A DNA stretch of 6,193 nucleotides from a virus (taxonomy: Monodnaviria; Loebvirae; Hofneiviricota; Faserviricetes; Tubulavirales), in IMG/VR virus record IMGVR_UViG_2663762857_000022. One strand, written 5' to 3'. Below the pieces are notes generated by a model. That model did no database searches. It saw only the letters and a list, made by a program, of their open reading frames with translations, and was not told the origin of the DNA. Position 1 is the stretch's first letter. Each line of letters begins with the position of its first letter. A program made the position numbers and the translations under genes. Of this stretch, positions 1 through 6,193 are shown piece after piece.

Positions 1-1331
<1,331 letters not shown>

Positions 1332-1344
1332 TTACCCCGCAAAA

Positions 1345-1704
1345 TTACTTGCCAACATTAAGCCCATTTGATTTAAATAAATCATAAACCAATCGATACA
1401 CTCTATCCTTATAAAGATATATGTATGAAATAAATTGAACATGGAGGATGATATTAAAACAGTACTGAATATTTAAAGGAAGGTAACTGAATGCAACTAC
1501 AATAACATCGAGTTTATTAACATCGGAGATTTGACGAATAATAAAATTGACGGCAGATACAAGAGCATAATATGAAGTGTAGCAAAGACCAAGATAAGAA
1601 AGGAGCTTAGCCCATGCAACAGCTTTATCACCGATAACTCCTGCAATGAAACGTAGTGATTTTAAAACAACATCAACAAAAAAAGCACCTAAAATGGCCC
1701 ACAT
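1345..1704 (-). CDS. Minor coat protein pVI-like (virion cap / membrane protein)
   Basis: 119 aa, very hydrophobic with several predicted TM segments, similar in size to f1 pVI (112 aa). It sits between pIII and pI as in Ff. Its ATG (1704..1702) overlaps the pIII TGA stop (1706..1704) in an ATGA arrangement. Confidence 0.6.
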   Translation of the reverse strand: MWAILGAFFVDVVLKSLRFIAGVIGDKAVAWAKLLSYLGLCYTSYYALVSAVNFIIRQISDVNKLDVIVVAFSYLPLNIQYCFNIILHVQFISYIYLYKDRVYRLVYDLFKSNGLNVGK

Positions 1705-2990
1705 CAGAGTTTTACCTCACGTTCAAATAATGTACGGCGAGAAATAACAAAAACGCGTAACATGGTTATCATATAAATAGCATATTCAAGAACAGAACGA
1801 ACATAATCGTCATAAGCTTTTGCAAAATGGCTTGTATCAATCTTGAAATTAATCGCGCCAATCAACGGAAGATTAAAGCTAAACTGTAAAGTAAAAGGAA
1901 GAGCAGTTCCATTATTTGTATTTACCAGTTTGTCAATATTAACTGTAAGCCAATTGTTATTATCATGACTCTCACTTCCCTGTCCTGGCAAATAATGCGA
2001 AAGCTCCCCTAAAGGGAAATCCCCATCAGGCAAAGAAGAAGCTATATTCTGACTAATATCTTTAATACCATTGTCCAGTGAATTTAATGCATTATTCATA
2101 TCAGCCTGAGAAACAGAAAAAGCATTATTTAAATCATTCACTGACACCCATATTGTTTTTAACCAGCCCAAAATACCATCAAGCCAGCCATTGTCATCGC
2201 CGGATGAGCCACCGGATCCTGAACCTGAACTACCGCTACCGGATGAACCGCCGGAGCCCGAGCCGGAGCCACCGCTACCGGATGAACCACCGGAGCCAGA
2301 ACCTGAACCACCACCGGAACTGCCGCCGCCTGGGTTACCACCACCGGAACTGCCACCACCTGAGCTACCGCCATCCTCCTTACCATCGGAGAATGCAGGA
2401 TCTACAGCAACTGGTTTCCAGTCGGCAGTACAAACTGTATCATCATCGGGATTACAAATAAGAGGATTGCCGGTTGCCTCATAAATACACCCCTGCACAT
2501 TAACATAACGGGTCCCGTCATCACCTTTATAAACATCAGAAAAAGTCATACCATCAAGAACCGGACGAGAAAGACAAATCTCGTCAGTTGGCGGCTTATT
2601 ATATTCAGGTGTCAAATCCCCCTCACCACCCTGAAAAGCAAGGGCGCAGGCTGTCCACTTTTGCTTGTCTGAATCCCAGACTTTATATGCTGACCACCGG
2701 GCACGGACAAAAGACCCGACAGTCGAAGGTGCATTAACAGGCGTGGAAAGTGGCACACCACAATAATGAATTATTCCGGAACATGCGTCATAACTGCCCG
2801 AACCACAGAAAAGATGACCGGCCCCCCGGGATAATTTAGTTGAAACACCTGCATCTGAATAAGCTGTCCTGCAGGATGAATGGCCTGCACACTGAACAAG
2901 TGCATCCGGATTTTCTTTCTCTTCAGCGAAAGAAAACGAGGAAAAGAACAAAAACAGAAGCGGAATAATAAAGTGAATCAAACAAAACAC
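1704..2990 (-). CDS. Adsorption / minor coat protein pIII-like (receptor-binding attachment protein)
   Basis: 428 aa. N-terminal signal-peptide-like hydrophobic stretch (FCLIHFIIPLLFLFFSSFSFA), a Cys-rich N-terminal region (about 10 Cys), a long Gly/Ser linker (residues ~207-264) and a hydrophobic C-terminal anchor region, typical of g3p. It lies directly downstream of the coat-gene terminator as in Ff. The start codon is uncertain: GTG at 2990 (AGGA immediately adjacent) or TTG at 2981 (AGGAG 8 nt upstream). Confidence 0.75.
   Translation of the reverse strand: MFCLIHFIIPLLFLFFSSFSFAEEKENPDALVQCAGHSSCRTAYSDAGVSTKLSRGAGHLFCGSGSYDACSGIIHYCGVPLSTPVNAPSTVGSFVRARWSAYKVWDSDKQKWTACALAFQGGEGDLTPEYNKPPTDEICLSRPVLDGMTFSDVYKGDDGTRYVNVQGCIYEATGNPLICNPDDDTVCTADWKPVAVDPAFSDGKEDGGSSGGGSSGGGNPGGGSSGGGSGSGSGGSSGSGGSGSGSGGSSGSGSSGSGSGGSSGDDNGWLDGILGWLKTIWVSVNDLNNAFSVSQADMNNALNSLDNGIKDISQNIASSLPDGDFPLGELSHYLPGQGSESHDNNNWLTVNIDKLVNTNNGTALPFTLQFSFNLPLIGAINFKIDTSHFAKAYDDYVRSVLEYAIYMITMLRVFVISRRTLFEREVKL
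2199..2372 (-). repeat. Imperfect tandem nucleotide repeats encoding the Gly/Ser linkers of pIII
   Basis: Repeated units such as ccgctaccggatgaaccgccggagcc[c/a]ga[g/a]cc[g/t]ga[g/a]cca and accaccggaactgcc[g/a]cc[g/a]cc are visible on the plus strand. The translation is GGSSGGGSSGGG...GSGSGSGGSSGSG. Confidence 0.7.
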
Positions 2991-3041: not shown

Positions 3042-3302
<261 letters not shown>

Positions 3303-3616: not shown

Positions 3617-4042
3617 TCAGCCTTTTTCTTTACCTGCGGGCAGTGCACCCAGCGGCTGACCGTCAAAACGTTTCATGGAGCCGGAAATAAAACGATACCA
3701 GACACCATGACGTTCTGAGCCTGTCGCCCATGAGTTAACATCCACCGTGAGATAAACAGGTTTGCCCTGCAAATCAGGACATGAATTAAAAAATTTAAAA
3801 TCCTCCTCAGTACAGGAAAAGCGCTCATGCTCCTCACGGCGGACTTTTAATTTTCGGTCCTCATACGGATAGGCAATAACAATGGCATATTTGGGTTTAG
3901 CCTCAGGGTTATAATGAGAACCCGTGGGTTTTAACTCCTCATCATTTATGACAGTGACGTGAATAAAATATCCCGCCATTGTCATGCCTGAGGTAAAACC
4001 CTCAGGGGAAGGAAACGGAAAACTGTCGTAAATTTGATTCAT
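3617..4042 (-). CDS. Putative ssDNA-binding protein (gene V / RstB analogue) by position; function not confirmed
   Basis: 141 aa with a strong RBS (GAGGAG 8 nt upstream of ATG 4042), immediately downstream of Rep and upstream of the small coat-like ORFs, which is the gene V position in Ff. Basic and aromatic rich (KPVYLTVDV, GVWYRFISGSMKRF). Larger than Ff pV (87 aa), closer to the CTXphi RstB size class. No direct motif recognised. Confidence 0.4.
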   Translation of the reverse strand: MNQIYDSFPFPSPEGFTSGMTMAGYFIHVTVINDEELKPTGSHYNPEAKPKYAIVIAYPYEDRKLKVRREEHERFSCTEEDFKFFNSCPDLQGKPVYLTVDVNSWATGSERHGVWYRFISGSMKRFDGQPLGALPAGKEKG

Positions 4043-4072: not shown

Positions 4073-6088
<2,016 letters not shown>

Positions 6089-6120
6089 TCAATCATTCAA
6101 GATGAACCGCAAGGCTCAGC

Positions 6121-6142
6121 ACTGATACTTGACGGTATCAGT
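6121..6142. promoter_or_regulatory. Perfect 8-bp inverted repeat (actgatac-N6-gtatcagt), candidate operator overlapping the predicted rep transcription start
   Basis: actgatac (6121-6128), ttgacg spacer, gtatcagt (6135-6142). It sits directly downstream of the predicted -10 in the direction of rep transcription, a typical operator position. Confidence 0.3.
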
Positions 6143-6143
6143 T

Positions 6144-6172
6144 ATGCTATTATCAAACTTAACAAACGTCAA
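6144..6172 (-). promoter_or_regulatory. Putative sigma-70 promoter for the rep operon
   Basis: On the minus strand: TTGACG (plus 6172..6167), a 17-nt spacer, then TAGCAT (plus 6149..6144). It lies about 70-100 nt upstream of the rep ATG. Sequence-only prediction. Confidence 0.3.
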
Positions 6173-6193
6173 TAATGTTGATACCAATAAATA

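Follow-up and report, generated by a model that had tools for sequence, protein, structure and literature searches.

The window analysed here is the entire draft contig CDQW01002537.1 of assembly GCA_000936715.1, a stretch of 6193 bases, and almost the whole of it is a filamentous (inovirus) prophage whose genes lie on the minus strand (Table 1). At its right end are a replication initiator gene, rep, the relatives of whose product carry the RefSeq name 'replication endonuclease', and a short non-coding tail with the inverted repeat that is the subject of this report. At the other end (window 1-486), an internal fragment of argS on the plus strand is joined at about position 369/370 to a zot gene without its 3' end, the zot product having 349 aa in the window versus 403 aa in the nearest prophage. 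Because this junction falls within argS, an essential gene, it points to a rearranged duplicated fragment or to a chimeric assembly. Long open reading frames on both strands at 2078-2484 overlie that part of the pIII-like gene which codes for Gly/Ser-rich linkers; they are spurious, arise from sequence composition and are no genes. Within rep we also observed a perfect 13-nt inverted repeat (ACCGAATCAGCCA and TGGCTGATTCGGT, window 5601-5613 and 6058-6070), by which codons 2-5 pair with a segment 444 nt downstream and which is kept at 12 of 13 positions in the closest prophage. Such a repeat is very unlikely to arise by chance within 700 nt, and it could reflect a long-range pairing in the rep mRNA or a tie to an internal origin of the gpA type.

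Table 1. Features of the window, numbered from its first base; for minus-strand promoter hexamers the reading direction is given in brackets.
Feature	Position	Strand	Remarks
Fragment of argS	1 to ~369	+	PF00750, profile positions 75-205
Zot-like assembly ATPase	279-1328	-	
119-aa ORF in the pVI position	1345-1704	-	
pIII-like adsorption protein	1704-2990	-	Gly/Ser linkers; PF05357
86-aa ORF in the major-coat position	3042-3302	-	
Small ORFs and a 141-aa protein	3617-4042 (141-aa protein)	-	
Replication initiator rep	4073-6073	-	666 aa; Phage_GPA (P2 gpA) family, PF05840, E = 4e-48
Candidate recombination joint, GPA-rep/structural module versus HTH-type regulatory module	6073..6074		TTTTA/TGAC (minus strand), at the rep start codon
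Non-coding tail, rep start codon to contig end	6074-6193		120 nt; holds the inverted repeat
Shine-Dalgarno-like GAGAG	6086..6090	-	12 nt before the rep ATG
Conserved block GAACCGCAAGGCTCA in the rep 5' leader	6104..6118	-	GCAAG invariant or nearly so
Candidate operator O1, ACTGATAC-TTGACG-GTATCAGT	6121..6142		8-nt arms, 100% complementary; 6-nt spacer
Conserved core of O1, TGATAC-N6-GTATCA	6123-6140		alignment of 16 relatives
-10 hexamer of the predicted rep promoter, TAGCAT	6144..6149 (6149-6144)	-	consensus scan
-35 hexamer of the predicted rep promoter, TTGACG	6167..6172 (6172-6167)	-	consensus scan; 17-nt spacer to the -10
Candidate operator O2, TGATAC-CAATAA-ATA(TCA)	6179..6193, cut by the contig end		directly upstream of the -35

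A sequence-only reading of this DNA had described a perfect inverted repeat next to a promoter candidate directed towards rep. The repeat was confirmed at 6121-6142, where it starts 2 nt downstream of the predicted -10 hexamer, and the promoter candidate holds as well: TTGACG-17-TAGCAT on the minus strand, with 9 of 12 consensus matches, is the only promoter-like site that a consensus scan finds between 5900 and 6193. Shuffled sequences yield a mean of 0.5 such sites per scan, so that by itself the scan counts for little. When the tail (6074-6193) is shuffled by dinucleotides, 2.4% of the shuffles contain a perfect 8+8 inverted repeat with a loop of 0-12 nt (mean 0.03), and in the whole window five perfect 8+8 repeats are observed where 1.3 are expected. 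Taken without its relatives the repeat is only suggestive; it is the comparison with those relatives that lifts it above chance. A single match of the window to the consensus pattern given below is likewise not significant alone, since one or more matches with up to two mismatches turn up in 83 of 200 shuffles.

Relatives were gathered with DNA anchors that exclude the repeat, by exact look-ups of homologues of the HTH protein described below and by a protein-based scan; the sources were complete E. coli genomes, IMG/VR, exact-protein look-ups and a single metagenome contig. No match to the tail was obtained by blastn among deposited phage genomes, nor by exact-pattern scans of a collection with one genome per species. 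In an alignment of 16 relatives the O1 positions TGA (6123-6125), T6129, G6134, T6136 and CA (6139-6140) are invariant and the spacer positions 6130-6133 are conserved at 56-75%, different phages having TTGACG, TTAACG, TAAACG, TAGTTG, TAATCG, TTTGCG or TTATTG between the arms. With conserved arms around a spacer whose middle four bases are free to vary, the site can be written TGAYAC-N6-GTRTCA. The variation in spacer and flanks also indicates that the relatives are not too recent to be informative. In the promoter, T6145 and TA (6148-6149) of the -10 hexamer are invariant among the 16 relatives and A6144 is 94% conserved, the TAnnAT frame being retained as TATCAT or TAGTAT, and GTCAA (6168-6172) of the -35 hexamer is invariant in all 16. 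O2 has invariant TGA (6179-6181), AA (6189-6190) and TCA, the last of these immediately past the window end, in the same alignment.

When TGAYAC-N6-GTRTCA was searched with up to two mismatches, exactly two sites were found per intergenic region, in every locus and 55-57 bp apart, and the rest of the 113 kb scanned holds six other matches, each with two mismatches. Another reading of the half-sites is as pentamers that alternate in orientation with an 11-bp spacing, and these GTRTC/GAYAC pentamers are enriched about 5-10 times in the intergenic region. In the window the centres of O1 and O2 are 56 bp apart, i.e. 5.3 turns, which is not an obvious same-face spacing. Several relatives have an imperfect O1 dyad with 5-6 of the 8 arm pairs, and in one subgroup (L011 and L038) the better dyad is an 'everted' one that lies one pentamer further left; for these reasons the register in which the protein would bind is uncertain. 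The leader block GAACCGCAAGGCTCA is present in all immunity groups, also in those with other operators, and it folds as a small hairpin in some relatives and not in others. A further suggestion, that the central TTGACG of the repeat might act as the plus-strand -35 element of a regulator promoter, did not survive the comparison: the hexamer varies among relatives and has no -10 partner, which is why we reject it, and a plus-strand promoter using TTGACG was not found.

Every relative that shares the intergenic region carries a divergent HTH_3 regulator gene, which was also found by further look-ups and scans, and whose conserved ATG lies about 83 bases past the point that matches the window end. 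The divergent regulator that had been predicted to the right of the window is thus there in all of these relatives, while in the window itself the contig stops at 6193. Because this stop lies inside O2 and leaves the repressor gene out of view, the window's operator could have such a gene beside it or could, alternatively, be an orphan. The proteins of this family have about 160-175 aa, are of the XRE type and are annotated just as XRE/HTH regulators; their hosts are Salmonella, E. coli, Klebsiella, Yersinia enterocolitica, Kluyvera, Providencia and Pantoea. An AlphaFold model (low confidence, pLDDT 59) has five helices that form an N-terminal HTH domain, followed by a linker that is poorly predicted and by a C-terminal part that is helical. 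HTH_3 alone was found in a domain search, with no peptidase domain (S24 or RecA-cleavable) detected. A tblastn search of deposited phages returned only remote N-terminal matches, to Vibrio inoviruses and Pseudomonas CI-like repressors, and no named or deposited phage with this HTH module, and the family profile had no significant hit among PDB sequences. In the relatives, the gene that follows the HTH gene directly is a variable cargo slot with defence-like proteins, namely Fic, AbiJ_NTD4/Abi_C, SduA_C (Shedu-like) and SLFN_AlbA_2 (L011 3604-4338; L026 3599-4534; L028 3544-4356; L029 3558-4160).

The recognition helix of the HTH protein starts with GIS-V-S-TLKR in every phage with GTRTC-type sites and with GIS-(A/S)-R-TLKR in a sister clade (P0006, P0009, P0016 and relatives). 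At the corresponding place, between the GCAAG block and the -10, phages of the sister clade have AGTGCC-N6-GGCACT together with additional GTGMC pentamers. Counted for each intergenic region (about 190 nt), the V-S group has 2-7 GTRTC-type and 0-1 GTGMC-type pentamers and the A/S-R group 0-2 and 5-7, respectively, the background density being about 2-4 pentamers per kb. Both operator types adjoin G2P and Rep_trans initiators, and the GTRTC type also adjoins the GPA initiator of the window. Across the sequences compared, operator type tracks the HTH clade independently of the Rep family (G2P, Rep_trans or GPA), which argues that the HTH protein is the binder and argues against a Rep-binding origin. 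The correlation between helix and half-site is effectively one evolutionary event, since it rests on a single clade split.

We consider it likely that the repeat is operator O1 of a temperate filamentous phage immunity switch, bound over the rep start by the phage's own XRE-type (HTH_3) repressor. The locus has a two-fold symmetric site that overlaps the predicted core promoter, arms that are conserved around a free centre, extra copies of the site and a change in its sequence that is linked to the recognition helix. The proposal of the sequence-only reading that the repeat is a repressor site controlling replication is supported in this respect: the arms are kept across the 16 aligned relatives and the spacer is not, the further half-sites that it had suggested looking for are present as a second dyad 56 bp away, and an HTH_3 gene accompanies the region in relatives. 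A repressor dimer would bind both arms of TGAYAC-N6-GTRTCA, and its gene, coding for a product of about 160-175 aa, would lie divergently just past the contig end. With transcription of rep presumed to start at about 6136-6138, O1 would span about -5 to +17 of the rep promoter (P_rep) and O2 about -42 to -59. When bound to O1, the repressor would keep RNA polymerase off the promoter, and rep and the phage genes downstream would thereby be silent in a lysogen. O2, together with a half-site GACMC 11 bp past it, would separate P_rep from what is probably the HTH gene's promoter, for which the relatives offer a conserved candidate, TTCAGC-16-TA(A/G)(A/G)AT, missed by the scan. O2 and the further half-sites toward the repressor gene probably serve cooperative binding and autoregulation. 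What we infer here from sequence comparison is where transcription from P_rep starts, that the HTH protein binds and represses, that it does so cooperatively and that the source strain has its gene.

A more elaborate arrangement, which we hold to be a rather unlikely though conceivable one, is that the control region consists of six alternating GTRTC/GAYAC pentamers on which the HTH protein, with its two domains, clamps or wraps the promoter as an oligomer, and that this region forms a portable cassette for at least three unrelated rolling-circle initiators. Pentamers start near 6113, 6124 and 6135 and near 6180, 6191 and about 6202, i.e. in two clusters of three with an 11-bp spacing; the clusters have two-fold symmetry around the centre of the spacer in the rep promoter (about 6160), and the pattern is seen both in the window and in a relative (L002 9045-9140). 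The leftmost of these in the window is a weak pentamer, GGCTC (6113-6117), inside the GAACCGCAAGGCTCA block and 11 bp from the left arm of O1. If this arrangement were true, immunity type would be decoupled from the replication machinery in enterobacterial inoviruses, and the cassette of the window would be joined exactly at the start codon.

The simpler assignment of O1 to the phage's own repressor also has to be weighed against binding by another protein, either a host transcription factor or a different phage protein, with the HTH protein binding elsewhere. There is precedent for host control of such promoters, since PrstA of CTXphi is co-repressed by host LexA and transcription of rep in YpfPhi is under RovA (PMC8402870, PMC4266046). 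The outermost bases of the repeat read CTG...CAG, which recalls a LexA box, but their geometry is CTG-N14-CAG instead of CTGT-N8-ACAG; the window holds no LexA-like box at one to three mismatches and no CTGT-N8-ACAG at one mismatch or fewer. In addition, the sequence of the site changes with the recognition helix of the phage HTH protein within the same host range, which is not expected of a host-factor site. We regard this explanation as improbable.

Function of the repeat as a nucleic-acid hairpin would not involve a DNA-binding protein in the same sense: it could form a stem-loop at the 5' end of the rep mRNA that controls stability or translation, or a hairpin in single-stranded DNA that serves as minus-strand origin or packaging signal. 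Inovirus intergenic regions do carry functional single-stranded DNA hairpins, as in the Ff phages, and a 34-nt segment of the window, when isolated, folds into an 8-bp stem (-11 kcal/mol, z = -3.8). This stem is dropped, however, in the minimum-energy fold of the full leader. The covariation score of 0.103 lies below the shuffled mean of 0.153, one pair alone having changed on both sides, and in 10 of the 16 relatives a T stands opposite the G at the fourth arm position (plus strand), which puts an A-C mismatch into the middle of the stem on the strand of the rep mRNA; the commonest variant is TGATAC opposite GTGTCA. Since the presumed start at about 6136-6138 falls inside the first arm, the hairpin would not be contained in the mRNA. 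No T-run or terminator was found, and an Rfam scan of the tail gave no match. A hairpin would also leave unexplained O2, which has the same arms and an imperfect dyad. Taken together, a role as a hairpin appears very unlikely.

We see equally little room for the repeat as a binding site of the replication initiator, whether as part of a rolling-circle plus-strand origin or as a site of Rep autoregulation. The idea has a basis in f1, where gpII binds inverted repeats next to the nick site and where the plus origin of the Ff phages lies in the intergenic region upstream of gene II, and most relatives with the region do have a G2P-type Rep. Yet the same dyads stand beside three unrelated initiator families, G2P/Phage_CRI, Rep_trans and, in the window, Phage_GPA; the GTGMC-type variant occurs with both G2P and Rep_trans; and the type of site follows the HTH clade and not Rep. 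An f1-like nick motif was searched for in a G2P-type relative and was not found. Origins of the P2 gpA type lie inside the A gene, and the Rep of the window is of this type. That the repeat is a chance palindrome without function in an A+T-rich intergenic tail is scarcely credible: its frequency in shuffled tails and the non-significance of a lone consensus match leave some room for this, but arm bases are invariant while flanks and spacer diverge, every locus has a second copy at a constant spacing, and the motif is essentially absent elsewhere.

The control region appears to have a different history from the genes that it adjoins. In complete E. coli genomes, the prophages with the Rep and structural genes of the window, at 95-99% identity, all lose similarity to it at 6067-6077. 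Upstream of rep these prophages have a divergent gene for 62 aa and a cluster of TGCAATTGTGCA repeats (L001 10780-10930), so that the same GPA Rep stands next to wholly different repeats when the small divergent gene is another one, which fits exchangeable immunity modules. The window tail (6069-6193), on the other hand, matches only 5 of 5426 complete E. coli genomes, at 87-88% identity, and the matches are to the intergenic region between a 371-aa G2P-type rep (PF05155, PF05144) and a divergent HTH_3 gene (PF01381, E = 2e-8). The prophage with the matched region is integrated in tandem, with dif-like inverted sites alongside. Because the tail and the Rep/structural block match different prophage types, the phage of the window is, as far as its sequence can tell, a mosaic in which a GPA-type replication and structural block stands behind an HTH-type control region.

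The joint falls exactly on the rep start codon and reads TTTTA/TGACC on the minus strand; to the left of it the sequence is similar to codons 2-3 of the G2P gene, to the right of it to the GTG-ACT start of GPA, and the ATG of the window's rep appears to have been created by the joint. The Shine-Dalgarno-like sequence is 12 nt from the rep start in the window versus 5 nt in G2P-type relatives. The junction of a GPA rep with this regulatory region was found in none of the 5426 complete E. coli genomes. An assembly artefact could conceivably lie behind it, also given the odd argS fusion at the other end of the contig. We think misassembly of the tail less likely because the microhomology of about four bases (TGAC) is too short for a k-mer assembler, because the tail is a distinct allele, 88% identical to its nearest relatives, and because a proper ATG arises at the joint, which we accordingly hold to be real but unproven.

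Among known systems, the closest parallel to the proposed switch is RstR/PrstA (ig-2) of CTXphi. CTXphi is a filamentous phage that integrates at dif via XerCD, and the relatives of the window have dif-like inverted pairs; in both cases a small HTH_3 repressor gene diverges from the replication gene, and the operators of RstR lie over the rstA promoter as the candidate O1 lies over that of rep. Repression of PrstA is by a dimer of RstR dimers (PMC8402870). In both systems, otherwise similar phages exchange heteroimmune alleles of repressor and operator, and some of the relatives studied here have an initiator of the Rep_trans (RstA) type. In contrast, RstR has 112 aa and the proteins found here, at about 160-175 aa, additionally contain a linker and a C-terminal domain of helices. 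Homology to RstR over its length was not found: in an hhalign comparison of RstR with the HTH family only 41 HTH columns align (probability 77%, 37% identity). Further differences are that there is no LexA box here, that the Rep of the window is of the Phage_GPA family and not Rep_trans, and that the operator sequences are unrelated. Strictly taken, the module therefore lies outside the RstR family.

The dif-like pairs of the relatives (AGTGCGCACAATGACGTTATGT... and ...CATTATGCGCACT) are inverted and flank a strong hairpin (L002 about 10105-10200; L001 about 11373-11465), an arrangement that resembles the folded single-stranded attP of CTXphi. Prophages with these pairs lie in tandem near hipBA, in the dif region.

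The architecture of the site, here a dyad of 18 bp, is also similar to that of the lambdoid CI/Cro operators (lambda, 434, P22), with dyads of 17-18 bp, conserved outer arms around a variable centre and several sites between divergent promoters. Lambdoid operators are read by the first residues of the recognition helix, and specificity shifts with one or two helix residues. Here, however, we detected no S24 peptidase or RecA-cleavable domain and identified no cro-like second regulator, the regulated gene is an inovirus rolling-circle initiator, and the half-sites can also be read as alternating pentamers with an 11-bp spacing. YpfPhi/CUS-1, with YPO2273 (an RstR homologue), and UPphi share with the relatives of the window the host range, integration of an enterobacterial inovirus at dif and a putative repressor gene that diverges from the neighbouring gene II. 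In such phages the gene II/V block is known to recombine as a module (PMC4266046, PMC7307601). The regulatory role of YPO2273 'awaits experimental demonstration' (PMC4266046), the description of UPphi (PMC7307601) does not treat regulation, and no operator is described for YpfPhi/CUS-1. Pf4r, compared here together with P2 C, is likewise a temperate inovirus repressor with several sites beside its own gene and a role in superinfection control (PMC8402870). The sites of both Pf4r and P2 C are non-palindromic direct repeats (PMC8402870), whereas the sites described here are inverted repeats that go with a protein of the XRE/HTH_3 type.

Most likely, then, the repeat is an ordinary phage repressor operator, found in an uncharacterised enterobacterial family. 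The principle of such a phage switch is not new and would follow the logic of CTXphi and of the lambdoid phages. Its relevance comes from the hosts, as the fitness and virulence of Enterobacterales are affected by their temperate filamentous phages (CUS-1, YpfPhi, UPphi and many unnamed relatives). A concrete product of the analysis is the candidate operator consensus TGAYAC-N6-GTRTCA, present in two copies that flank the rep promoter. With it come a candidate repressor family and a putative two-residue specificity determinant, V-S versus A/S-R, the latter paired with a second operator type. The immunity module appears to move between phages with three different replication initiators. Operator and helix type may thus be of use for classing heteroimmunity groups and for predicting cross-repression among co-resident inoviruses.
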